Source: Escherichia coli (GTDB lineage Bacteria > Pseudomonadota > Gammaproteobacteria > Enterobacterales > Enterobacteriaceae). Taken from it: 64,000 nucleotides of DNA. Positions 1 through 37,887 of this stretch are shown here, piece after piece. Every line of letters begins with the position of its first letter. Within the stretch, counting starts at the first letter, position 1. The notes beneath the pieces were generated by a model, which was given only the letters and a program-made list of their open reading frames with translations, was not told the origin of the DNA and made no database searches. The stretch lies in NCBI RefSeq assembly GCF_030013595.1, contig NZ_CP122768.1. One strand, written 5' to 3'. Made by a program: the position numbers and the translations under genes.

Positions 1-487
1 GCTTGACGACGGGCAGGTTATCGCAATGGACAAGCCGGATGAGTTGCTACTCACTCCCGCCAGCTTGCTGCTACCCGCCCAAGCCAGCGAAGTGATCCGC
101 TTCTTCTATAAGGGACCAGCAGATGAAAAAGAGCGCTACTACCGCATTGTCTGGTTTGATCAGGCCCTCAGTGATGCGCAGCGCGATAATGCCAACCGTA
201 GCGCTGTGGCCACTGCTTCCGCCCGCATCGGCACCATTCTGGTCGTCGCCCCCCGCCAGGCGAACTACCACTTTCAGTACGCCAACGGCTCCCTGACAAA
301 TACAGGAAATGCGACGCTGCGGATCCTCGCCTACGGCCCCTGCCTGAAAGCCGCCAATGGTAAAGAGTGTAAAGAGAATTACTACCTGATGCCGGGCAAG
401 TCGCGTCGTTTTACCCGCGTGGACACGGCGGATAACAAAGGACGGGTTGCACTTTGGCAGGGTGATAAGTTCATTCCCGTGAAATAG
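1..487 (+). CDS. ecpB: EcpB (MatC) fimbrial chaperone, 3' part only; gene begins upstream of the window
   Basis: Reading frame open to window start; the encoded C-terminus is paralogous to the EcpE chaperone at 4640-5350 (KERYYRIVW vs [15 protein letters not shown] vs VVRPRQ); lies directly upstream of the usher gene; recalled match to E. coli EcpB. Confidence 0.8.
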
Positions 488-512
488 ATAGCTGTGCAGA
501 TGGATAATGACA

Positions 513-3038
513 ATGCCTTTACGACGGTTCTCCCCAGGACTGAAAGCCCAGTTTGCCTTCGGCATGGTCTTTTTGTTCGTTCAGCCCGATGCCAGCGCTG
601 CTGACATAAGTGCGCAGCAAATAGGTGGGGTGATTATTCCGCAGGCCTTCAGTCAGGCGCTTCAGGACGGCATGAGCGTCCCACTTTATATTCATCTCGC
701 CGGTAGCCAGGGGCGCCAGGACGATCAGCGAATCGGCAGCGCTTTTATCTGGCTGGATGATGGACAGCTACGCATCCGGAAAATACAGCTGGAAGAGAGT
801 GAAGATAACGCCAGTGTCAGCGAACAAACTCGACAGCAGCTGATGGCTCTGGCGAACGCCCCGTTCAATGAGGCCCTTACCATCCCCCTGACTGACAACG
901 CGCAGCTGGATCTCAGCTTGCGCCAACTGCTGCTGCAGCTAGTGGTCAAGCGCGAAGCGCTGGGCACCGTACTACGCTCACGTAGCGAAGACATCGGGCA
1001 GTCCAGTGTTAACACCCTCAGCAGTAATCTGAGCTATAACTTCGGCGTCTATAACAACCAGTTGCGTAACGGCGGGAGCAACACATCCAGCTATCTGTCG
1101 CTGAATAACGTTACTGCACTGCGCGAACATCACGTGGTGCTCGACGGCTCGCTGTACGGGATCGGTAGCGGTCAACAGGACAGTGAATTATATAAAGCGA
1201 TGTATGAACGCGATTTTGCCGGTCACCGATTTGCCGGTGGAATGCTCGATACCTGGAACTTGCAGTCCTTAGGGCCGATGACCGCCATTTCAGCAGGGAA
1301 GATTTACGGCCTTTCCTGGGGAAACCAGGCCAGCTCCACCATCTTCGACAGCAGCCAGTCAGCCACGCCAGTGATCGCCTTTTTACCGGCGGCGGGCGAA
1401 GTACATCTCACCCGTGATGGGCGGCTACTAAGCGTTCAGAACTTCACCATGGGCAATCATGAAGTGGATACCCGGGGTCTACCGTACGGTATTTACGATG
1501 TGGAAGTTGAGGTAATCGTTAACGGTCGCGTGATCAGCAAACGCACTCAACGGGTCAATAAGCTGTTTAGCCGGGGGCGCGGCGTCGGTGCACCACTGGC
1601 GTGGCAGATATGGGGCGGTAGCTTTCATATGGATCGCTGGTCGGAAAACGGGAAAAAGACGCGACCAGCTAAAGAGAGTTGGCTGGCAGGTGCCTCGACC
1701 TCCGGCTCACTGAGTACGCTTAGCTGGGCGGCAACGGGATATGGATACGATAATCAGGCGGTGGGCGAAACCCGTCTGACGCTGCCGCTTGGGGGGGCGA
1801 TCAACGTTAACCTGCAAAATATGCTGGCCAGTGACAGCTCATGGAGCAACATCGCCAGCATCAGCGCCACTCTACCGGGAGGCTTTAGTTCGCTGTGGGT
1901 TAATCAGGAAAAAACCCGCATTGGCAATCAATTGCGACGTAGCGATGCCGACAACCGTGCAATCGGCGGCACACTCAACCTGAACTCACTGTGGTCGAAG
2001 CTGGGCACATTCAGCATCAGCTACAATGATGACCGCCGTTACAACAGCCATTATTACACGGCAGATTACTATCAAAATGTCTACAGCGGTCCCTTTGGTT
2101 CGCTTGGCCTGCGGGCCGGTATTCAGCGCTATAACAACGGCGACAGCAACGCCAATACAGGGAAATATATCGCTCTCGATCTCTCGCTACCACTGGGCAA
2201 CTGGTTTAGCGCAGGGATGACCCATCAAAACGGCTACACCATGGCAAACCTGTCAGCACGCAAACAGTTTGATGAAGGAACCATTCGCACTGTTGGTGCC
2301 AATCTGTCACGAGCCATCTCCGGCGATACCGGTGATGACAAAACCCTCAGCGGTGGGGCGTATGCACAGTTCGACGCTCGTTACGCCAGCGGAACGCTGA
2401 ACGTTAATAGCGCGGCGGACGGCTACATCAATACCAATTTGACCGCCAACGGCAGCGTCGGCTGGCAGGGTAAAAACATCGCTGCCAGCGGGCGGACCGA
2501 TGGCAACGCTGGGGTGATATTCGACACTGGCCTGGAGAACGATGGTCAGATCAGCGCCAAAATCAACGGGCGGATTTTCCCGCTTAACGGCAAGCGTAAC
2601 TATCTCCCGCTCTCTCCCTATGGAAGATATGAGGTGGAGTTGCAGAACAGCAAAAACTCACTCGACAGTTACGATATCGTCAGCGGTCGCAAAAGTCATC
2701 TGACTCTCTATCCAGGCAATGTCGCTGTCATTGAGCCAGAGGTGAAGCAGATGGTTACCGTCTCCGGTCGTATCCGTGCGGAAGACGGCACACTGCTGGC
2801 TAACGCACGGATTAACAACCATATCGGCCGAACCCGAACCGATGAAAACGGCGAGTTTGTCATGGACGTGGATAAGAAATACCCCACTATCGATTTTCGC
2901 TACAGTGGCAATAAAACCTGCGAAGTGGCACTGGAACTCAACCAGGCGCGCGGTGCCGTCTGGGTCGGTGATGTGGTCTGCAGCGGCCTCTCATCGTGGG
3001 CGGCGGTGACGCAGACAGGAGAAGAGAATGAGAGTTAA
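513..3038 (+). CDS. ecpC: EcpC (MatD) outer-membrane fimbrial usher, 841 aa
   Basis: ORF 507-3038; start moved to third Met to give the 841 aa usher length; recalled N-terminus [17 protein letters not shown]; position between ecpB and ecpD. Confidence 0.9.
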
Positions 3039-4671
3039 CCTACTGATAGCGATGATAATCTTTGCGCTAATCTGGCCTGCAACCGCGCTCAGAGCGGCAG
3101 TGAGCAAAACAACCTGGGCGGATGCTCCGGCACGCGAGTTTGTGTTTGTCGAAAACAACTCAGACGACAACTTTTTCGTCACGCCTGGCGGGGCGCTGGA
3201 TCCGCGCCTGACCGGTGCCAACCGCTGGACCGGTTTAAAATACACTGGCTCAGGAACCATCTATCAGCAAAGCCTCGGCTACATTGATAACGGTTACAAC
3301 ACCGGCCTTTATACCAACTGGAAGTTTGATATGTGGCTGGAAAATTCACCAGTTTCATCTCCTTTAACTGGCTTGCGCTGCATCAACTGGTACGCAGGGT
3401 GTAATATGACCACCAGTCTTATCCTGCCGCAAACCACCGACGCCAGTGGATTTTATGGCGCGACGGTGACCAGCGGCGGCGCGAAGTGGATGCACGGCAT
3501 GTTGTCAGACGCGTTTTACCAGTATCTGCAACAAATGCCCGTCGGCAGCAGCTTTACAATGACCATCAATGCCTGCCAGACCTCTGTGAACTATGACGCC
3601 AGTAGCGGCGCACGCTGTAAGGATCAGGCCTCCGGCAACTGGTATGTTCGCAACGTCACCCATACGAAAGCAGCAAATCTGCGGTTGATAAATACCCACT
3701 CGCTGGCGGAAGTATTTATCAACAGCGACGGAGTACCGACTCTGGGCGAAGGGAACGCCGACTGCCGGACGCAAACCATCGGCAGCCGTTCAGGATTAAG
3801 TTGTAAGATGGTTAACTATACCCTGCAAACAAACGGACTCAGCAACACCTCAATCCATATCTTCCCGGCGATCGCCAACTCGTCGTTAGCCTCGGCCGTC
3901 GGGGCGTACGATATGCAGTTCAGTCTGAATGGCAGTTCATGGAAACCGGTGAGCAATACTGCCTATTACTACACCTTCAACGAGATGAAGAGCGCAGACT
4001 CGATCTATGTTTTCTTCTCGAGCAACTTCTTTAAGCAGATGGTGAACCTCGGGATCAGCGATATCAACACCAAAGATCTATTCAACTTTCGCTTTCAGAA
4101 CACCACATCACCGGAGTCTGGCTGGTATGAATTTTCTACCTCCAACACGCTGATTATCAAACCCCGTGATTTCAGCATCAGTATTATCTCCGATGAATAT
4201 ACTCAGACACCGTCGCGGGAGGGATATGTTGGCAGCGGCGAGTCGGCACTCGATTTCGGCTATATCGTAACCACCAGCGGTAAAACAGCTGCCGACGAAG
4301 TGCTGATCAAGGTGACCGGACCCGCGCAGGTGATTGGCGGGCGCTCCTATTGTGTCTTCAGCTCCGATGACGGTAAGGCGAAAGTACCGTTCCCGGCGAC
4401 ACTTTCCTTTATTACCCGCAACGGAGCTACAAAAACCTACGATGCCGGGTGCGATGATAGCTGGCGGGATATGACCGATGCGCTGTGGTTGACCACACCG
4501 TGGACTGATATCTCTGGCGAAGTGGGGCAGATGGATAAGACCACAGTCAAATTTTCGATTCCAATGGATAACGCCATTTCGCTGCGTACGGTAGATGATA
4601 ACGGCTGGTTTGGCGAAGTCAGCGCTTCAGGAGAAATTCATGTTCAGGCGACGTGGCGTAACATTAACTAA
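3028..4671 (+). CDS. ecpD: EcpD (MatE) fimbrial tip adhesin, 547 aa
   Basis: 547 aa ORF with signal peptide, overlaps ecpC stop by 11 nt; length and context match EcpD. Confidence 0.9.
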
Positions 4672-22730: not shown

Positions 22731-22799
22731 TATTTGCTCCTTATGAATGAGTTAGCGGTATAAATGAATAAATATCCTCCGGCATAGCCGGAGGTTTTT

Positions 22800-23520
22800 C
22801 AAATGCGCCTGTAAGGCTCTGTTACCAGCCGCGCCCTAACAGGCGCATACGATCTGACATTTGCATTCAACTTCGTTACTTACGGCCCGTAAACGGGCTG
22901 CCCGGATATGGAATCGATAACTGCTCCCCCATTTTATCCTCTTCAAGCTGGTGCTTTATGTAGTCCTGTATCTTCGCCGTGTTCTTACCCACCGTATCGA
23001 CATAGTACCCTCGGCACCAGAACTCCCTGTTTCTGTATTTGAATTTCAAATCCCCAAACTGCTCGTAAAGCATCAGACTGCTTTTCCCTTTCAGATATCC
23101 CATAAAGCCGGATACGCTCATTTTGGGTGGGATTTCCACAAGCATATGGATATGATCTGCGCAGCACTCTGCTTCCAGAATCCGTACGCTTTTCCACTCA
23201 CACAGCTTTCTCAAAATACTGCCTATCGCCCTACGCTTCTCTCCGTAAAACGCCAGTCTTCGGTATTTCGGCGCAAAAACTATGTGATATTTACAGTTCC
23301 AGCGGGTGTGCGCTAAGCTCTTTTCGTCCCCCATTGGGACCCCCTTTTGATTTCTTGTTTGACACTTGCAGTTGCCAGACCGCAAGGTGTTTTAACAAAT
23401 CAAAAGGGGTTTTAATAACTGGCTCAAAGCTGAAAGCTTTCCGGAACCCCCAGCCTAGCTGGGGGTTTTCTGTGCACAAAAAGCCGCGTCTCCCGGAGAA
23501 GACGCGGCCTGATGGGTGAA
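22800..23520 (-). mobile_element. IS200-like insertion sequence (boundaries approximate)
   Basis: Contains IS200/IS605 Y1 transposase gene; upstream on the minus strand a perfect hairpin gccgcgtcttctccgggagacgcggc followed by a T-run and a second hairpin cccccagctaggctggggg, the characteristic IS200 left-end structures. Confidence 0.75.
22876..23334 (-). CDS. tnpA: IS200/IS605-family Y1 (HUH) transposase TnpA
   Basis: 152 aa from MGDEKSLAHTRWNCKYHIVFAPKYRR with HUH motif ADHIHMLVEIP and catalytic Tyr region; ORF track start 23385 is an extension. Confidence 0.85.
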   Translation of the reverse strand: MGDEKSLAHTRWNCKYHIVFAPKYRRLAFYGEKRRAIGSILRKLCEWKSVRILEAECCADHIHMLVEIPPKMSVSGFMGYLKGKSSLMLYEQFGDLKFKYRNREFWCRGYYVDTVGKNTAKIQDYIKHQLEEDKMGEQLSIPYPGSPFTGRK

Positions 23521-27052: not shown

Positions 27053-27922
27053 TCAGAAGAAAATCCAGTTCCATACAGCGCGGGCAACAGAGACCACCGT
27101 GTCACGGACGACACGCAGAACCGTACGAGCCACAGAGGCAATACAGACGCTCTCCGCCGTGTCAAATATCCGGTCCACCGCACCGGTAAACTGTTCACGG
27201 GCCTGCCCCCGGACAGATTCCGTGCACAACTCGTCCTGCAGGCGGGTCATCAGGGGACTGGCGGCATGGTCGGGAAGTGCTGTCATGAGCGCACTGACCA
27301 GCGTATCCAGTTCCCAGCCGGTGCGGGCCGATACGGCCACAACCGGATGTACGGGCCGGAACAGCCGGAATACCGCATCTGTTTTCTCACGAATGTTCTG
27401 TTCCTGTGCGGGAGAAGGCTGAATACCTGCCATATCCCATTCATGGCAGGGCTCCGTTTTGTCGGCCTGCGTCACCACAAACAGCACCTGCTGATGTCCC
27501 CGGTGCAGGATGTGTCGCCAGAAATACTCATCCACAGACAGGGCACGGTCATCGGCTTTAATCAGCCACAGTACCAGGTCAAGTTCAGGCAGAATGTCAC
27601 GGTACAGGGCTTCATACTCTGCATCCCTGTCCCGGCTCTCGCCCACCCCGGGTAGGTCAGTGATAACCATGCTGTGACCATGGCCACTCAGACGGAAGCG
27701 CTGCGCTTCCCGGGTGCCGGCGTGAACATCACTGACCGGGGTGACCTCCCCCTGAAACAGTGCATTACAGAGTGAGGATTTACCGGCCCCGCTTTTCCCC
27801 ATAATGCCAATCACGGGTTCGTGGCTGGTGAGTTTGCGCAGATGTTCCAGGATGTGACGGGAAAGTGAGTAAGGAAGAGAAGAAAGTGGTTTTTCAATTG
27901 CCTCAATGGCATCAGACGGATT
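27053..27922 (-). CDS. YfjP/YkfA/YeeP-family GTPase
   Basis: Walker A GIMGKSGAGKSS, G3 DLPG, G4 TQADK; start set at MNPSDAIEAIEK; ORF track start 27964. Confidence 0.85.
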   Translation of the reverse strand, partial: NPSDAIEAIEKPLSSLPYSLSRHILEHLRKLTSHEPVIGIMGKSGAGKSSLCNALFQGEVTPVSDVHAGTREAQRFRLSGHGHSMVITDLPGVGESRDRDAEYEALYRDILPELDLVLWLIKADDRALSVDEYFWRHILHRGHQQVLFVVTQADKTEPCHEWDMAGIQPSPAQEQNIREKTDAVFRLFRPVHPVVAVSARTGWELDTLVSALMTALPDHAASPLMTRLQDELCTESVRGQAREQFTGAVDRIFDTAESVCIASVARTVLRVVRDTVVSVARAVWNWIFF

Positions 27923-28255
27923 CATACATGTATTCCCGGTGAAAAAAGACAAAACCCCGCGCACCGGAAAGGTGGCGGGGGATTCACGGAGATAATATCT
28001 GTCTGAAATTATTTAGGATGCAGGTATCTTCAGATAATCGCACCCCCAGAATTTTATTCTTAATAGTTGAATAGTGGTATTTGGTTTCCCTGAGAGAATA
28101 TAAAGATGAATCATGCTGTATTGAGTTTGATTCTATTTGTACTGAGACAGGTATCTTCATGATTATAATCAAAAGCCGGGTGGATTGGTCTGGCGCTAAT
28201 TATTTTCTCGAATAAACTCACTAATTATTGTAACCATCCCAAAGGAGATGATTTT

Positions 28256-30400
28256 ATGTATAATTGTGGTGAATCATATTCAGAATACGACATATCATTA
28301 TCTGACGATGAAAACTATAACGATGACTATTATCGTGAGCGCCCGTGCCCGGGAGAAGTTTTCGGCTATGATAATGATGTACCACGGTTTAGTAAGATTG
28401 CACGGTCTTATTTGCTCCACGTGGGTAGCCTTGACTGGACCAAGATAAATCCGGATATCTTTGGCTCCATGATTCAGGCAATTGCCGAAGATGAAGAGCG
28501 CGGAGAGCTGGGTATGCATTACACCAGCGTACCCAACATCTTAAAAGTTTTGAATCCACTATTTCTTGACGACCTGCGTGCACAGCTGGACGAGGCTGGT
28601 GACAATCCACGTATGTTGCTGAACCTGCGCAAACGCATTTCCCACATTCGTGTGTTCGACCCAGCGTGCGGTTCTGGGAACTTTTTGGTTATCGCGTATA
28701 AGGAAATGCGTGCCATTGAGGCCGAAATCAACAAGAGGCGCAGTGAGCCGGATCGTGCCTCGGATATTCCACTTACCAACTTTCGCGGGATTGAACTACG
28801 AGATTTCCCGGCAGAAATCGCCCGCCTTGCGCTTGTTATCGCTGAGTACCAATGTGATGTGCTGTACCGTGGGCTGCGGCTGGCCTTGGCTGAGCTTCTT
28901 CCTTTACGCAACGAAAATTGGATTACTTGTGGCAATGCACTGCGGCTCGACTGGTTAAGAATTTGTCCGCCAACGGGAACCAGTGTGAAATTACATGGTG
29001 ACGACTTGTTTGGATCACCGCTTGATCAGGCAGAGATTGACTTTGAAAATGAAGGAGGAGAGACATATATTTGTGGAAATCCTCCATACAAGGGTAGCCA
29101 AACCCAAACTGATGACCAAAAAAATGATCTAAAAGCCATATTCGAGAAACGCACAACTAATTGGAAGTCATTGGATTATGTTGCAGGTTGGTTTATGAAG
29201 GCTGTCGACTACGGTAGTCAAACTAACTCGTCTGCTGCGTTCGTCTCAACTAATTCCATTTGTCAAGGTAGACAGGTCGAAACCCTTTGGTCGTTGATTT
29301 TTGCAGCCAAGCATGAAATATCCTTTGCTTATACGTCCTTCAAATGGGCAAATCTTGCTAGCCACAATGCGGGAGTGAGTGTCATTGTTGTGGGAATTTC
29401 TAATCATGTTAAGGGCCCCCGGAAAATATTTTCCACAACTGAGGATTTGGGGACCATCATAAAAGAAGTAGACAACATCAATGCGTATCTTGTCGCGGGT
29501 AAAAGCACAATTGTTGCACAGCGAAGTTTTCCTTTATCCGAAGTAAGTGTAATGGATTTTGGTTCAATGGCGAACGATGGTGGTGGCCTTCTTTTTGACA
29601 GTTCAGAATCAAGTCGTGCAGTTAATGATTATGGTGCTGATATTTGTTATTTTCGAAAGGCTTGGGGAGCTAAGGAGTTTATTTCTGGAACTCCTAGAGC
29701 TTGCCTGTGGTTAAATAAAGACAGTGCTAAAAAAGCAATTCTGAACTCTTGGATTTCAGACCGAATTGAGATCACACGTAAGGCCAGAGCAAATAGTCCT
29801 CGGGCAGCGACAAAAAAACTAGCAGATATTGCTTACAGATTTGGTGAAGTGAGGCAAGACGGCAGCGAGCGAATCATTATTGTTCCCAGTGTCAGTTCTG
29901 AACGTAGGGAGTATCTTCCATGTGGTTATCTCGATGTTGGTTCAATCGTTATCGCTCCGAATCTTGCTTTCTATGATTCCCCGCTTTGGAATATGGCGCT
30001 TATTGCTTCTAGGTTGCATTTGGTATGGGTGGCGACAGTCTGCGGGCGTATCAAAACTGACTATCGCTACTCTAATACCCTTGGCTGGAATACTTTCCCT
30101 GTCCCACCACTCACTGAGAAAAACAAGGCCGACCTTACGCGTTGCGCAGAGGATATCCTACTGGCGCGGGAACACCACTTCCCTGCGACTATTGCGGATT
30201 TGTATGATCCCGCGAACATGCCCCCTGACCTGCGTGCTGCCCATGAACGAAACGACGAAGTGCTGGAACGCATCTATATAGGGCGACGATTCAAGAACGA
30301 CACTGAGCGGCTGGAAAAGTTGTTCGACCTCTACACGAAAATGATTGCTTCGACTGCACCGGTCAAAGGTAAGAAGCGCAAAGCAGGAAATAACGAATGA
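28256..30400 (+). CDS. N6-adenine DNA methyltransferase, gamma-class, MmeI/PglX-like, without nuclease domain
   Basis: 714 aa; strong SD aaaggaga 8 nt before ATG; SAM motif I VFDPACGSGNFLV at about aa 135 and catalytic motif IV CGNPPYKG at about aa 277; upstream HYTS helical region; about 430 aa C-terminal presumed target-recognition region. Confidence 0.8.
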   Translation: MYNCGESYSEYDISLSDDENYNDDYYRERPCPGEVFGYDNDVPRFSKIARSYLLHVGSLDWTKINPDIFGSMIQAIAEDEERGELGMHYTSVPNILKVLNPLFLDDLRAQLDEAGDNPRMLLNLRKRISHIRVFDPACGSGNFLVIAYKEMRAIEAEINKRRSEPDRASDIPLTNFRGIELRDFPAEIARLALVIAEYQCDVLYRGLRLALAELLPLRNENWITCGNALRLDWLRICPPTGTSVKLHGDDLFGSPLDQAEIDFENEGGETYICGNPPYKGSQTQTDDQKNDLKAIFEKRTTNWKSLDYVAGWFMKAVDYGSQTNSSAAFVSTNSICQGRQVETLWSLIFAAKHEISFAYTSFKWANLASHNAGVSVIVVGISNHVKGPRKIFSTTEDLGTIIKEVDNINAYLVAGKSTIVAQRSFPLSEVSVMDFGSMANDGGGLLFDSSESSRAVNDYGADICYFRKAWGAKEFISGTPRACLWLNKDSAKKAILNSWISDRIEITRKARANSPRAATKKLADIAYRFGEVRQDGSERIIIVPSVSSERREYLPCGYLDVGSIVIAPNLAFYDSPLWNMALIASRLHLVWVATVCGRIKTDYRYSNTLGWNTFPVPPLTEKNKADLTRCAEDILLAREHHFPATIADLYDPANMPPDLRAAHERNDEVLERIYIGRRFKNDTERLEKLFDLYTKMIASTAPVKGKKRKAGNNE

Positions 30401-32442
30401 ACAATAAAATCAAGAATGTACCTTCCGTTTCCGTTACTTATGCACGTAATGGCGCATCAACCAAAGCTAATGTGCTTGGGATGCGTCCTATGCAGGAGAG
30501 AGCTTATGAAAAGCGCGGCGAGCAGTACTTGCTTATCAAATCACCACCGGCATCAGGTAAAAGCCGCGCACTGATGTTCATAGCACTCGACAAACTCGAA
30601 AACCAAGGGATTAAACAGGCAATCATCGTTGTGCCGGAAAAATCTATCGGCGCGAGTTTCAACGATGAACCGCTATCGCAGTTTGGATTCTGGGCTGATT
30701 GGCATGTCGAACCTAAGTGGAACCTATGCAACGCGCCCGGTAACGACAACGGGGGCAAGGTAAGATCTTTTGGCTCTTTTCTTGAAAGTAGCGACAAGGT
30801 GCTTGTTTGCACACACGCAACCTTTCGCTTCGCGGTCGATGCCTATGGCGTAGAAGCGTTTGACGATCGCCTGATCGCCGTCGATGAATTCCACCATGTG
30901 TCAGCTAACCCGGATAACAAGCTTGGTCAGCATCTGGGGCAGTTCATCGCGCGTGATAAGACACACATCGTTGCCATGACCGGCTCCTACTTCCGTGGTG
31001 ATGCGGAGGCCGTTTTGGCTCCTCAGGATGAGTCCAGGTTCGATACCGTCACCTATACCTACTACGAACAACTCAACGGTTACGAATACCTCAAGCAACT
31101 CGATATCGGCTACTTCTTTTACAGTGGCTCCTACGTCGATGACATCCTTAATGTCCTCGATCCTGACAAAAAGACCATTATCCATATACCCAACGTCAAT
31201 TCGCGCGAGAGCACGAAGGATAAAATCAAGGAAGTGGAGCATATTCTTAGCGAGCTTGGCGATTGGCAAGGTGCGGATCCTGCGACTGGTTTCCAGCTAG
31301 TCAAATGCCTCGATGGCCGAATGTTGCGTATAGCTGATCTGGTGGACCCAACTAGTCAAGGCAAGATTCAGGAAAGCCTTCGTGCTGCAGAAATGAAGAC
31401 AGACCGTGACTATGTAGACATCATTATTGCACTTGGTATGGCGAAGGAAGGTTTTGACTGGATTTGGTGCGAACATGCGCTGACCGTTGGCTACCGTGCC
31501 AGCCTGACTGAGATCGTGCAGATTATCGGTCGCGCTACTCGCGACGCGCCGGGTAAAAACCGCGCAAGGTTTACTAACCTGATCGCCGAGCCGGATGCTG
31601 TTGAGGGGGCTGTCACCGAGGCAGTCAACGATACCTTGAAAGCCATCGCGGCAAGCCTGCTGATGGAGCAAGTATTAGCTCCGCGCTTCGAGTTCAAGCC
31701 TAAGAACCCAGAAAGTGGTCCGGCCCCAGGCTTTGATTATGGTGATGGTGGATATGACCCGGATAGCTGTAATTTTGGTGTTAATGAGCAGACAGGGACG
31801 TATCAAATCGAGATTAAGGGACTTGCCGAGCCCAGGAGCAAAGAGGCGGCACGCATCTGCCAGGAAGATTTAAACGAAGTGATCGCGGCCTTTGTGCAGG
31901 ATAAGCCCGCCATCGAACGAGGCCTGTTCGATGAAGAGCTGATTCCTGAAGAGTTAACTCAGGTTCGTATGGGTAAGATCATCAAAGAAAAGTATCCTGA
32001 GCTTGATGCTGAAGATCAGGAGGCTGTACGTCAGCATGCTATCGCCGCCCTTAACCTCACGCAGCAGGCCAAGCGTCTTGCCACCGACGATAACGATGGG
32101 ACGCTCAATACTGCTCTTATTGACGGAGTGCGTCGCTTTGCGATGGATGTGCGCGATTTAGACATAGACCTTATCGACCGCATCAATCCCTTTGGTGAAG
32201 CCTACGCTATCCTTGCTAAGACGATGAGTGAAGACAGTTTGAAGCAGGTCGCGGCGGCAATCTCGGCCAAGCGTACCTCGATCACACCTGAAGATGCCAA
32301 GGTGATCGCCAAGCGTGCCGCTGAATTCAAACGTGAACGTGGCCGCCTCCCATCGTTAACTTCGCCGGATGCTTGGGAAAAACACCTTGCTGAAGGTGCA
32401 GCTGCGTTTATGCGTTTTAGGGCGGAGGGACGTTATGAATAA
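30397..32442 (+). CDS. SF2 (DEAD/DEAH, ResIII-like) helicase with about 300 aa uncharacterised C-terminal extension
   Basis: 681 aa; ATGA overlap with MTase stop; Walker A SPPASGKSRA, DExH box IAVDEFHHV, motif III MTGSYF, motif VI QIIGRATRD. Confidence 0.8.
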   Translation: MNNKIKNVPSVSVTYARNGASTKANVLGMRPMQERAYEKRGEQYLLIKSPPASGKSRALMFIALDKLENQGIKQAIIVVPEKSIGASFNDEPLSQFGFWADWHVEPKWNLCNAPGNDNGGKVRSFGSFLESSDKVLVCTHATFRFAVDAYGVEAFDDRLIAVDEFHHVSANPDNKLGQHLGQFIARDKTHIVAMTGSYFRGDAEAVLAPQDESRFDTVTYTYYEQLNGYEYLKQLDIGYFFYSGSYVDDILNVLDPDKKTIIHIPNVNSRESTKDKIKEVEHILSELGDWQGADPATGFQLVKCLDGRMLRIADLVDPTSQGKIQESLRAAEMKTDRDYVDIIIALGMAKEGFDWIWCEHALTVGYRASLTEIVQIIGRATRDAPGKNRARFTNLIAEPDAVEGAVTEAVNDTLKAIAASLLMEQVLAPRFEFKPKNPESGPAPGFDYGDGGYDPDSCNFGVNEQTGTYQIEIKGLAEPRSKEAARICQEDLNEVIAAFVQDKPAIERGLFDEELIPEELTQVRMGKIIKEKYPELDAEDQEAVRQHAIAALNLTQQAKRLATDDNDGTLNTALIDGVRRFAMDVRDLDIDLIDRINPFGEAYAILAKTMSEDSLKQVAAAISAKRTSITPEDAKVIAKRAAEFKRERGRLPSLTSPDAWEKHLAEGAAAFMRFRAEGRYE

Positions 32443-33613
32443 TTCTGATTTAGACGATTTGGCAGCAGAACTTGCCGAGTTTGCACCACCTGAGAAGAAA
32501 AAAGGACGTCCAGCCAGCGAGGAACGCATCATAGCCGGTTTTGAAGAGATCCAGCGCTTTACTGAGCAACATGGGCGTGTCCCGCAACATGGCGAAGAGC
32601 GTGATATCTTCGAGCGTCTCTATGCAGTGCGGCTCGACCGCCTACGCAGTCTCCCAGACTGCCGTGCCTTGCTAGAGCCACTGGATCATCAGGGCTTATT
32701 AGCTGGAGGGGGCGATGTAGCGGAGTCTGCGGACGAAATTATCGATATCGATAACTTGGCTGCCGAACTGGCGGATGTTTCCAGCGAGGACGATATCACG
32801 GTCTTGCGTCATGTTCGTGCTAGCACCGAAAAGCGCGTTGTACAAGGAGTTGCGGATCGCAAGCCGTGCGAGGATTTTGATGCGTTCAAACCACTATTTG
32901 AGCAGGTACGCAATGATCTAAGTTCAGGGTTAAGAGTGACCCGACCTTTTGGGCAGTATGCAACGATTGAAGTGGGTCATTGGTTTATCCTGGATGGTCA
33001 AACGGCTTATGTGTCTGAGGAAGGTGAAGAGTTCGATTCTCCACAGGGGAAGAAAGATGCTCGGCTGCGTGTCATTTATTCGAATGGTACAGAAAGCAAC
33101 CTACTTCGGCTGTCATTGGTTCGTGCTTTGTATAAAGACGAAACAGCGCGTCGAATTACCGATCCAGACATGGGGCCTTTATTCAGCGATGCTCTAGAAG
33201 AGAGCGATCTAGAAAGTGGCACTATTTATGTGTTGCGTTCGCTATCTGATAACCCTTATGTAGCTGAACATCGTGATGTCATTCACAAGATTGGAGTGAC
33301 TGGCGGCAAAGTAGAGGCGCGTATTGCCAATGCGGAACACGATTCCACCTATCTGTTAGCGAAAGTCGAGGTGGTAGCTTCATACAAGCTTGCAGGCATC
33401 AACAGCACCCGGATGGAAAACCTGTTTCACAGGTTGTTTGCACCCGCAAGGCTTAACATTACCATTAACGACCGTTTCGGCCATCCAGTGCAGCCCGAGG
33501 AATGGTTTCTCGTTCCGTTATTCGTTATCGATGAGGCTGTTGCACGTATTAAGGATGGTAGCATCATTGGGTATGTTTATGACCCCATGTCTGCGAAACT
33601 GGTGAAGGCATAG
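32435..33613 (+). CDS. Protein with C-terminal T5orf172 / GIY-YIG-superfamily domain
   Basis: 392 aa; start ATG 32435 overlaps the helicase stop by 8 nt and has GGAGGG SD; C-terminus GTIYVLRS...HKIGVTGGKVEARI...ENLFHRLF...EEWFLVP matches the T5orf172/GIY-YIG pattern; N-terminus has two acidic repeats DLDDLAAELAEF and DIDNLAAELADV. Confidence 0.7.
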   Translation: MNNSDLDDLAAELAEFAPPEKKKGRPASEERIIAGFEEIQRFTEQHGRVPQHGEERDIFERLYAVRLDRLRSLPDCRALLEPLDHQGLLAGGGDVAESADEIIDIDNLAAELADVSSEDDITVLRHVRASTEKRVVQGVADRKPCEDFDAFKPLFEQVRNDLSSGLRVTRPFGQYATIEVGHWFILDGQTAYVSEEGEEFDSPQGKKDARLRVIYSNGTESNLLRLSLVRALYKDETARRITDPDMGPLFSDALEESDLESGTIYVLRSLSDNPYVAEHRDVIHKIGVTGGKVEARIANAEHDSTYLLAKVEVVASYKLAGINSTRMENLFHRLFAPARLNITINDRFGHPVQPEEWFLVPLFVIDEAVARIKDGSIIGYVYDPMSAKLVKA

Positions 33614-33837: not shown

Positions 33838-34262
<425 letters not shown>

Positions 34263-34426
34263 TAAGCGTCGTCTGAGTACCGTCTGGTCCCGAATCCAGG
34301 ATCCTGTAACTTAAGCACCCACTTATTTTGCAGGTGGACACCTCATGCGCACCAAAGAACGACTCCCCCGGAAACGCTATTCTCCTGAATTTAAAATGGA
34401 ACTGGTCAGGCTGGCCCTTGAACAAG

Positions 34427-36191
34427 ATATCACGAACGGTGCAATAGTGGTTCTTCCGCAACTTGGGTGGAAGAAAATGGATGAAACTTTCTGGTGAACA
34501 AGGATCTAAGCTGTTTTAAGTTATGGGCAACGCAATGCACTCTCTTAAGACACTTCTACAGTTACCTTGCGGATGGCGATGCAGTCGACAAATTATTAGC
34601 TCTGACGGTATCACCCTCCATCTCCACGGAAAACGCAAAACAGCACAATGTCCTGAATGCTCTAAGCGTAGCGACTCTGTTCATAGTTCTCGTCGGCGCC
34701 GGATACAGCATCTACCCTGCTCCGGGCAGACGCTATGGCTTGTATTTTCCGTCCGCCACTGGTACTGCCGTAACCCGGCTTGTTCACGTAAAATTTTTGC
34801 CGAGTCGCTTGCTCCCTTCGCCGGTTCACACCAGCAGTCTTCACAGGCGTTACAAAATTTACAACGTCAACTGGGATTAATAGCTGGAGGTGAGGCTGGA
34901 AAACGGGCTGCAACGGCAGCGGGTCTCCGTTGCAGTGCTGATACTCTTCTTCGCAGGGTTATCAATACCCCGGAGACGAAACAGTCAGGCGCGCCTCATG
35001 TCGGTATTGATGAGTGGGCGTGGCATCGGGGCCACTGCTGCGGTATGTTAATAGTCAATCTTGATACTCACCGTCCCCTCGTCCTGCTTCCCGGCCGTGA
35101 TCAGCGTACGCTGGCGACCTGGTTCAGAAAATATCCGGAAATACAGGTTGTCTCGCGTGATCGCAGTGGAGTCTATGCGACAGCAGCACGTGAAGGTGCA
35201 CCTCAGGCCAGACAGGTGGCCGATCGATGGCACCTGCTAAAAAATATTGGTGATGAGCCTGAACGAATGATGTACAGACATATACCTCTGATACGTCTTG
35301 TTGCCAGTGAGTTGTCACCAAAGAAATCACCTGAGCCAGAACTGTCTGTGCCTGCAGCATCGCTCCGTCGTCCGGAACGCCTTAAACAGCAAACCCGCAA
35401 AAAACGGCATCAGCGTTGGACAGAGGTTATGGCCCTGCATAACAAGGGATGTAGTTTCAGGGAAATATCCCGTATTACAGGCCTGTCGCGTGTGACAGTC
35501 AGTCGCTGAGTACGTTCAGGAACATTCCCTGAAATGTCAACCCGACCTCCAAAGCGAGGGCTTTTGGACCCATGGAGGGAGTGGTTAAAAGAGCAACGAG
35601 AAAGTGGGAATTATAACGCCAGCCGGATAATGGCGGGAAATGGTGGTCCGGGGGTTTACAGGCAGTGAAACCATTGTCAGGGATACTGTTGCCAAATGGC
35701 GTAAAGGCTGGATCCCACCGGTTACTACTGCCGTCAGACTTCCTTCAGTGTCCCGGGTAAGGCGCTGGTTGATGCCCTGGAGAATAATCAGGGATGAAGA
35801 AAATTATGCTTCCCGATTTATTAGTCTGATGTGTGAAAAAGAACCGGAGCTGAAAATAGCGCAGCAACTGGTACTCGAGTTCTACCGTATTCTGAAAACC
35901 CAAAATAAATCACAGCTTAGCAGCTGGTTCACTCGAGTCCACGAAAGCGGTTCAGCAGAACTTCGGCGCGTGGCTGCGGGGATGGAAGCTGATGCTGCGG
36001 CTATATGTGAGGCAATCAGCAGTCGCTGGAGTAATGGTGTTGTCGAAGGTCATGTAAATCGCCTGAAGATGTTGAAACGCCAGATGTATGGTCGAGCCGG
36101 ATTTGAACTGCTCAGGCAGAGGGTCATGAGTCCACTGGCATGAAAATCTCCACCCAAGTTGCGGAAGAACCACTTTTCATCCGTCGTTGAC
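34427..36191 (+). mobile_element. ISL3-family insertion sequence nested in IS66 tnpA
   Basis: Perfect 23 bp terminal inverted repeats ggttcttccgcaacttgggtgga (34449-34471) and tccacccaagttgcggaagaacc (36149-36171), extending imperfectly outward; removing 34427-36196 restores the IS66 tnpA frame. Confidence 0.75.
34523..36143 (+). pseudogene. ISL3-family transposase, disrupted by an in-frame stop and a frameshift
   Basis: Two ORFs (34523-35509 and 35640-36143); N-terminal zinc-finger-like HLHGKRKTAQCPECS and C-terminal WSNGVVEGHVNRLKMLKRQMYGRAGFELLRQRV typical of ISL3 transposases; TGA at 35507-35509 followed by a frame change. Confidence 0.75.
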
Positions 36192-36498
36192 ACAAGAGGG
36201 CAGTATCGCTGCTCTGGCCCGTCAACATGACGTCAACGATAATCTGCTCTTTAAATGGATAAGGCTCTAGCAACGTGAAGGGCGGGCGGGTCTGTCGACC
36301 CCGAAAAAATGCATCGTCGCTTCCTGCCCTGATACCCGTGCAACTTCAGGCGGAGCCTTCTCTCCCGGCATTCGAACCACCATCCTGTTCACCTACCACT
36401 GCCTGCCACATAAAATGTCGGGGCGGAGAAATAACACTGACCTCTCCCTCAGTTGAGCTTATGAGCACTGTCCTGCGCGAACTGATGCGGGGGTCTGT

Positions 36499-36840
36499 AT
36501 GATAAATCTTCCCGCAGGCACAAAAATCTGGCTGGTTGCCGGTATCACCGATATGCGCAACGGCTTCAATGGTCTCGCCGCAAAGGTGCAGACAGCGTTG
36601 AAAGATGACCCGATGTCCGGCCACGTCTTCATCTTCCGGGGCCGCAGCGGCAGTCAGGTCAAACTGCTGTGGTCCACCGGCGACGGACTGTGCCTGCTGA
36701 CCAAAAGGCTGGAGCGTGGCCGCTTCGCCTGGCCGTCGACCCGCGATGGCAAAGTGTTCCTGACGCCGGCGCAGCTGGCGATGCTGATGGAAGGTATCGA
36801 CTGGCGACAGCCAAAGCGGTTACTGACGTCCCTGACATGT
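36499..36840 (+). CDS. tnpB: IS66-family TnpB (orf2)
   Basis: MINLPAGTKIWLVAGITDMRNGFNGLAAKVQTALKDDPMSGHVFIFRGRSGSQVKLLW...GIDWRQPKR matches IS66 orf2; ATGA overlap with preceding tnpA frame; 3' end merges into the truncation junction. Confidence 0.7.
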
Positions 36841-37684
36841 TGTAGCCCAGGTCTTCTTCGTTGATAAAGTTCACATCCAGAGGATGGATACTTCCTGTAG
36901 CCCGTAATATCGTCGGTTCAATATCCTGCACATTCATCGGGATCACCGATGCAAGAAAAGCCCATTGATCAGAATAAGGCTGGAAATTAATATCAACAAA
37001 AACGCTTCCCCCCGATGCACGCGGTCTTTTTTGCAGAGGTAACGCGATAAGATTACCAAATCCTCCTTTTGGCATAGTATCCTGATTAGGAAATAATCGG
37101 TCATAAGAACTCAATTGCAGCTGTCGGGTCCGGCTGCACGTATAGCTAATAATAGCAGTCCCCAGACGGCGAGCTTCGCGGGCCGAAACTCGTGAAGCAA
37201 AAAATATCCAGACATGCGCTCCCTGACGTGAGCGGGATATTTCCAGCGCAGCAGGTACACTCAGCTCATCACAGGCTCGCATGAACGCGGATGCATCCTT
37301 CTGCCATTCAGCTTTATCAAAATCAACAGCCAGAAAATAACAGGAATCATCTTCCAGCAACGGATATAACCCGGCAGTATGCGTGCCTGCCAGATGCTGG
37401 TAGATGACAAGATCAGATACAGGGAGTAACTGACGGTGCGTACAGTCCCCGCATTTTATCCGGGGTTTACCGCATATTCTCGCCTGCCATTCGTTAGCGC
37501 AGGCAGGAGAGTACCCTGATTTGCCGCTGGTTTTACTTTCCCAACGAAGGGCCCATATATCATCACGCCCACGAAACAACCGACGAAATAATGCAACCTT
37601 CTCGTCGGTGGATAATACGGAAACGCGCTGCACAGGGCTCGGCGGTTTACGTCGCCATTCCAAGTAATGAGACCAGACGGGCAT
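36841..37684 (-). pseudogene. Archaeo-eukaryotic primase (AEP / Prim-Pol)-like gene, 3'-truncated by the IS66 remnant
   Basis: N-terminal LFRRLFRGRDDIWALRWE, DxD motif FLAVDFDK, GAHVWIFF and GGFGNLIALP motifs; the last third of the listed 341 aa ORF is antisense IS66 tnpB sequence. Confidence 0.6.
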
Positions 37685-37887
37685 TTTCTGCCCTCAATGC
37701 AGCTAATTCATCGCTGTCAGATTTATGAACCATATTCGTTACCTGTATCCGATCCACTGAGGCACCACGGCAGAAATTCGGGTCCCCTACACTGATGACA
37801 AAGCGCCCCGCCCTCTTCTGCCTATTAACTCAAGCACCTCCCAACAACTTACAGAAACTTAATTCTAATACCTAATACAGCTGTAAT

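Follow-up and report, generated by a model that had tools for sequence, protein, structure and literature searches.

A decayed ISEc38-like element nested in an IS66 remnant in the thrW island of Escherichia coli

Nested insertion sequence (IS) graveyards, such as that at the thrW/CP4-6 site, are loci in which stacked insertions record the order of events and in which decay and IS-mediated deletion come later. Among the families met here, ISL3 has been reported to make 8-bp direct target repeats (PMC3469429). ISEc38, an ISL3-family IS of E. coli, is named in RefSeq/NCBIfam annotation and in MobileElementFinder surveys; our literature search found it only in survey lists, with no description of its length, repeats or duplication. 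Its ISfinder entry may give 1722 bp, a figure that plays no part as evidence here. We analyzed a 64-kb stretch of E. coli DNA (NZ_CP122768.1; hereafter the window), which was the search space for all repeat, second-copy and donor searches. The locus described below is an ordinary one, with one known IS inside another and the module already annotated in sister genomes, with no essential difference from other graveyards beyond a junction specific to a minority of genomes.

The inner element shares with ISEc38 the 539-codon layout, the inverted repeats and a 5-bp duplication, and over its full length its DNA matches, at 96–97% identity, plasmid copies that carry the annotation “ISL3-like element ISEc38 family transposase”. 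Unlike those plasmid copies, it carries a pseudogene (an in-frame TGA, an extra A and five missense changes, apparently brought in with one patch) and a G>A change in its left tip. The outer element shares its left end (GTAAGCG...), tnpA and tnpB with IS66 copies, at 98.2% identity to that of strain 1105 (NZ_CP023388; locus L009) and 90.4% to that of strain GE3 (NZ_CP012376; L010), and, as in GE3, it lies within an IS3-family remnant. In contrast to the full tnpA–tnpB–tnpC element of GE3, the window has a split tnpA with a TAG stop and a 4-bp duplication, a tnpB with a 1-bp deletion, and neither tnpC nor a right end. Taken as a whole, we consider it very probable that this is a three-layer IS pile in the thrW island, in which ISEc38 sits in the IS66 tnpA and was knocked out by gene conversion. 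Coordinates are collected in Table 1.

Table 1. Positions in the window of the nested elements, their ends and their neighbors
Feature	Coordinates	Strand	Basis or remarks
ISEc38-like ISL3-family insertion sequence	34428..36192	+	1765 bp; 15-copy alignment and DNA identity
Left terminal inverted repeat (IRL)	34428..34471	+	TATCACGAACGGTGCAATAGT + GGTTCTTCCGCAACTTGGGTGGA
Right terminal inverted repeat (IRR)	36149..36192	-	Reverse complement = TGTCAACGACGGATGAAAAGT + GGTTCTTCCGCAACTTGGGTGGA
Left target-site duplication CAAGA	34423..34427	.	Single CAAGA in uninterrupted IS66 copies
Right target-site duplication CAAGA	36193..36197	.	Single CAAGA in uninterrupted IS66 copies
ISEc38 transposase pseudogene	34523..36145	+	539-codon ORF broken by TGA 35507-35509 and +1 A near 35629
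Putative gene-conversion patch with both transposase lesions	35509..35795	+	287 bp; 14 differences from closest genome
IS66-family remnant, left part: IRL (starts GTAAGCG) and tnpA codons 1-27	34262..34427	+	Alignment to L009 and L010
IS66-family remnant, right part: rest of tnpA and tnpB	36198..36846	+	Homology to full IS66 copies
IS3-family transposase remnant, host of the IS66 insertion	33881..34261	-	Pfam rve_3; DDE transposase pseudogene in sister genome
Truncated TOTE-system archaeo-eukaryotic primase gene	36847..37732	-	Pfam AEP-TOTE, 333.7 bits; pseudogene in sister genomes

Identity and ends of the ISL3-family element

Three ORF pieces lie between the repeat arms and carry Pfam Zn_ribbon_ISL3 and both halves of DDE_Tnp_ISL3, the latter matching both transposase ORF pieces (E = 2e-16 and 2e-13). 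The intact ORF of E. coli 2022H047 (L001), whose chromosome is 99.2% identical over the element and its flanks, scored 360.9 bits on the NCBIfam model transpos_ISL3 (NF033550; cut-off 180 bits). Together with the identity to ISEc38, these matches bear out the ISL3 assignment that a previous, sequence-only reading of this DNA had made. In the intact 2022H047 ORF (L001:6124-7743), DDE_Tnp_ISL3 is split into amino acids 160–294 and about 425–535, and the insert within the DDE domain of the 539-aa transposase contains HTH motifs, with a 59.8-bit match to an IS21 transposase N-terminal model at amino acids 303–394.

The same reading had reported perfect 23-bp inverted repeats at 34449-34471 and 36149-36171. 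Both are exact: GGTTCTTCCGCAACTTGGGTGGA (23 nt) occurs exactly twice in the 64-kb window, once on each strand (+ and -, respectively), and had no match in 100 dinucleotide-preserving shuffles with up to three mismatches permitted. The perfect repeat is actually 26 bp long (34446-34471 and 36149-36174), and a repeat finder lengthened each arm to 36 nt, with 89% complementarity. We set the element ends from 15 ISEc38 copies in different contexts, aligned on their conserved core. Homology among these copies always continues for 21 bp past either edge of the GG...CC core and ends at TGTCA...TGACA tips, with TGTCACGAACGGTGCAATAGT on the left and ACTTTTCATCCGTCGTTGACA on the right; a Klebsiella relative, 74% identical, retains the same extension. 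The terminal inverted repeats are 44 bp long and imperfect, with IRL and IRR agreeing at 36 of 44 positions and the inner 26 bp perfect. Comparison with the independent copies also moved the boundaries, originally given as 34427-36191, to 34428-36192, yielding an element of 1765 bp versus 1764 bp in intact copies. Position 2 of IRL (34429) is A in the window and G in other copies; this G>A change is common to the window, 2022H047 and DSM 103246 (NZ_CP019944; L012), and is absent from SMS-3-5 (L008) and the plasmid copies. The 21-bp tips outside the “GG” repeat, at 34428-34448 and 36172-36192 in the window, were also seen at loci L002, L003, L014 and L017. We had considered the two tip variants to be alleles shuffling among copies and rejected this, as the variants are IRL and IRR.

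Matching 5-bp flanks accompany all copies in the IRL...IRR arrangement. Four independent insertions, all with TGTCA...TGACA tips, show such duplications, namely CAAGA (the window, 2022H047 and SMS-3-5), ACAAC (L002), CCATG (L003) and CAAAC (L014), whereas copies with swapped or doubled tips show none and are read as probable products of recombination between copies. The earlier suggestion that acaag is repeated on both flanks thus held as to the presence of a duplication, but was one base out of register; the correct sequence is CAAGA. The 8-bp target repeat of the ISL3 family was not found here, the four insertions of this type each having 5 bp. This deviates mildly from what is usual in the family, in a secondary trait and not in the transposase.

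We considered a different delimitation of the mobile unit: only the 1722-bp core (GGTTCTTCC...GGAAGAACC, with “GG” tips) would have moved, into a palindromic IS66 target of ~42 bp. Eleven of the 15 copies share a core-to-core spacing of exactly 1722 bp, decayed ones having 1723–1725 bp, the core tips resemble standard ISL3 inverted repeats, and the family has been described with 8-bp rather than 5-bp duplications (PMC3469429). However, none of the 42 bp is present in the empty site of uninterrupted IS66 copies, the core lacks a flanking direct repeat, and the 21-bp tips remain attached to the element at unrelated plasmid locations and persist in the Klebsiella relative. We therefore rejected the core-only unit, which is extremely improbable, and retained the 1765-bp element. 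The 5-bp duplication and extended repeats help correct the boundary annotation of ISEc38. A broader generalization is offered tentatively, as a possibility we rate well below even chances: elements of the ISEc38 type may constitute a subgroup of ISL3 in which the true ends lie 21 bp outside the “GG” tips, with TGTCA...TGACA ends, 44-bp repeats, 5-bp duplications and a DDE domain split by a ~130-aa HTH insert resembling the IS21 transposase N-terminus. If so, any database entries that delimit ISEc38 at the 1722-bp core would fall 42 bp short.

The IS66 host and the order of insertions

In silico removal of 34428-36197, that is, the element plus one CAAGA, yields ...cccttgaaCAAGAgggcagtatcgct... 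across the junction. A 98% identical IS66 copy in another chromosomal context, that of strain 1105, reads cccttgaaCAAGAgggcagtatcgc, the exact excision product, and equals the reconstruction base for base across the junction. Searching with the 931-nt reconstructed IS66 sequence, we counted 491 E. coli records in which one place covers ≥80% of the query, among them copies from unrelated chromosomal settings that bridge the junction unbroken with 98.2% identity. The join of the flanks at 34426/36197 proposed by the sequence-only reading, LALEQEGSIAALARQHDV, is found as such in uninterrupted IS66 copies.

Excision also restores the helix-turn-helix of TnpA, as had been predicted. The interrupted 50-aa ORF fell short of the Pfam HTH_Tnp_1 cut-off (19.4 versus 24.1 bits) but scored 53.6 bits after excision, and the reconstructed 51-aa N-terminus has 92% protein identity to the intact TnpA of GE3. 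With two further lesions repaired, TnpA (127 aa) reached 79.4 bits on the NCBIfam IS66 TnpA model (NF047595; cut-off 74 bits). The reconstructed tnpA thus aligns to IS66 TnpA at both the DNA junction and the protein level. The empty site, the target duplication and the restored domain together establish that IS66 came first and ISEc38 later, the order originally proposed.

This order presupposes that the two IS66 halves were once one gene. Alternatively, two different IS66::ISEc38 or ISEc38-bearing loci may have been joined by homologous recombination through their ISEc38 copies, producing a chimera in which the halves never belonged together. Such products do exist in relatives, for example in DSM 103246, and several plasmid copies have swapped or doubled tips and no duplication. 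In the window, by contrast, the tips stand in the canonical IRL...IRR order, the 5-bp duplication is intact, and the joined flanks match one uninterrupted IS66 copy exactly, leaving a chimeric origin highly improbable and insertion into an existing IS66 as our reading.

The IS66 remnant bears further lesions. In tnpA, TGG is changed to TAG at 36268-36270, and a frame-shifting 4-bp duplication at about 36280-36290 gives gggcgggcgggt in the window versus gggcgggt in other copies. Directly downstream and overlapping lies tnpB (36499-36864; Pfam TnpB_IS66, 130.7 bits; NCBIfam IS66_TnpB, 118.8 bits), with its 1-bp deletion near the end. Full IS66 copies can be aligned only as far as 36846; tnpC and the right terminal repeat are gone, leaving a truncated remnant, and the TOTE primase fragment abuts the truncation point. 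The primase ORF (36659-37684) continues antisense through tnpB as a chimeric tail. No second similar IS66 copy was found in the 64-kb window. In strain GE3, an intact IS66 has IS3/IS911 fragments on both sides. The left junction between the IS66 and IS3-type sequences (34262) lacks 21 bp found in GE3 (L010:3000-3100), which points to a minor deletion or else to a separate insertion event 21 bp away.

The nesting provides a relative chronology for this part of the thrW island, from IS3-type to IS66 to ISEc38 to deletion and decay. In the history that we propose, an IS66-family element entered an IS3-family element first. An ISEc38-like ISL3 element then transposed into codon 27 of the IS66 tnpA, splitting the helix-turn-helix and duplicating CAAGA. 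A deletion, before or after the ISEc38 insertion, removed tnpC and cut the neighboring TOTE primase gene, and tnpA acquired its TAG stop and 4-bp duplication. Finally, one gene-conversion event from an already decayed ISEc38 paralogue would have brought in the TGA and the +1 frameshift.

Transposase lesions and a probable gene-conversion patch

The transposase gene now consists of an ORF at 34523-35509, a piece in the same frame past the TGA (35534-35668) and a piece in a shifted frame (35640-36143). The stop arises from TGG>TGA at 35507-35509, the change that creates it being G>A at 35509. The in-frame TGA and the frameshift noticed in the sequence alone are both real: eight other copies, all encoding or aligning with a 539-aa ORF, have neither the stop nor the extra A. 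With the extra A removed, the window protein differs from the intact 2022H047 protein, an unbroken 539-aa ORF, only by W329* and five substitutions. The earlier judgment that the element is probably immobile holds for autonomous movement, given the broken ORF, but does not extend further, the ends being nearly intact. The window copy cannot make transposase and thus appears to be a dead member that has lost autonomous mobility; because its ends are nearly intact, an intact ISEc38 copy elsewhere could still supply transposase in trans.

Programmed frameshifting is used by some IS families, such as IS1 and IS3, which raises the possibility that the TGA and frameshift are recoding signals and that the window copy still makes transposase. 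Against this, the translated copies L001, L008, L004 and L005 each contain one unbroken 539-aa ORF with TGG and no extra A, further copies are annotated in RefSeq/PLSDB with intact 1620-nt genes, and genomes that bear the patch described below are annotated “frameshifted; internal stop”. Recoding is therefore extremely improbable, and we treat the gene as a pseudogene.

Both lesions fall within a short divergent tract. The window and 2022H047 differ at 26 positions over 13.8 kb, and all 14 differences inside the element lie within 35509-35795, the stop-creating G>A at 35509 and the inserted A among them. Nine of the patch changes were found in none of the first eight comparison copies. A 321-bp patch probe matched seven other genomes at 100% identity. 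The copy in one of these, strain 95-3322, sits in another setting, a Tn3-type (DUF4158) remnant, and its annotation reads “frameshifted; internal stop”. That copy equals the window at 14 of 14 patch sites and has many differences outside the patch. The tract, delimited by donor-specific sites at 35441 and 35848, is at least 287 bp and at most about 406 bp long. The window element is therefore a mosaic of a 2022H047-like backbone and a tract of at least 287 bp from a decayed paralogue. The patch covers the DDE insert of the transposase (window 35400-35800).

Since both lesions sit in a patch 100% identical to a decayed copy elsewhere, the comparison indicates that they probably entered together by one gene-conversion event rather than as separate mutations. 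As to direction, 2022H047 and the more distant SMS-3-5 carry the same nested insertion with intact alleles. Parsimony over these two sister lineages points to conversion into the window lineage. The nested copies of 2022H047 and SMS-3-5 could instead have been repaired from intact copies, but this opposite direction requires two events, or an older one. On the favored direction, the donor was presumably at another genomic location or in an ancestor, because the window contains a single ISEc38 copy, with no second one found as a donor in its 64 kb. The locus would then exemplify an IS copy inactivated through gene conversion from a dead paralogue and not by mutation in place. What this analysis adds is the precise boundaries, the 5-bp duplication, the further IS66 lesions and the probable inactivation by gene conversion.

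Distribution and genomic context

A 160-bp probe across the left junction was covered in 72 of 5426 complete E. coli genomes. The junction is thus lineage-specific and could act as a clonal marker. Querying with the whole element returned 2784 genomes; this figure includes any ISEc38-like copy, and we rejected it as a count of the nested arrangement. Synteny with 2022H047 places the module in an island beside tRNA-Thr (thrW) and proA, flanked by a methyltransferase, DEAD-box helicase and GIY-YIG nuclease trio on one side and YagK/YfjJ- and YfjI-type genes on the other. The trio, a block that looks like a defense module, occupies about 27600-33613 (+) of the window, directly upstream of the IS pile; its methyltransferase is a SAM-dependent DNA methyltransferase, its DEAD/DEAH helicase spans 30397-32442 and its GIY-YIG nuclease about 32435-33613. 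Compared with the closest genome (L019), the window lacks a 2.3-kb segment at about 28372, which has a second, divergent IS66 remnant, and has ~700 bp extra at 22772-23478.

Chimeric ISEc38 copies, in which flanks or tips are exchanged and the duplication is absent, were seen at L012, L016 (CP061244), L004, L006 and L007. Such copies suggest that ISEc38 copies serve as recombination substrates that rearrange islands and plasmids. At L012, the IS66 left junction of the window is joined to the right junction of another copy, beside ggt.
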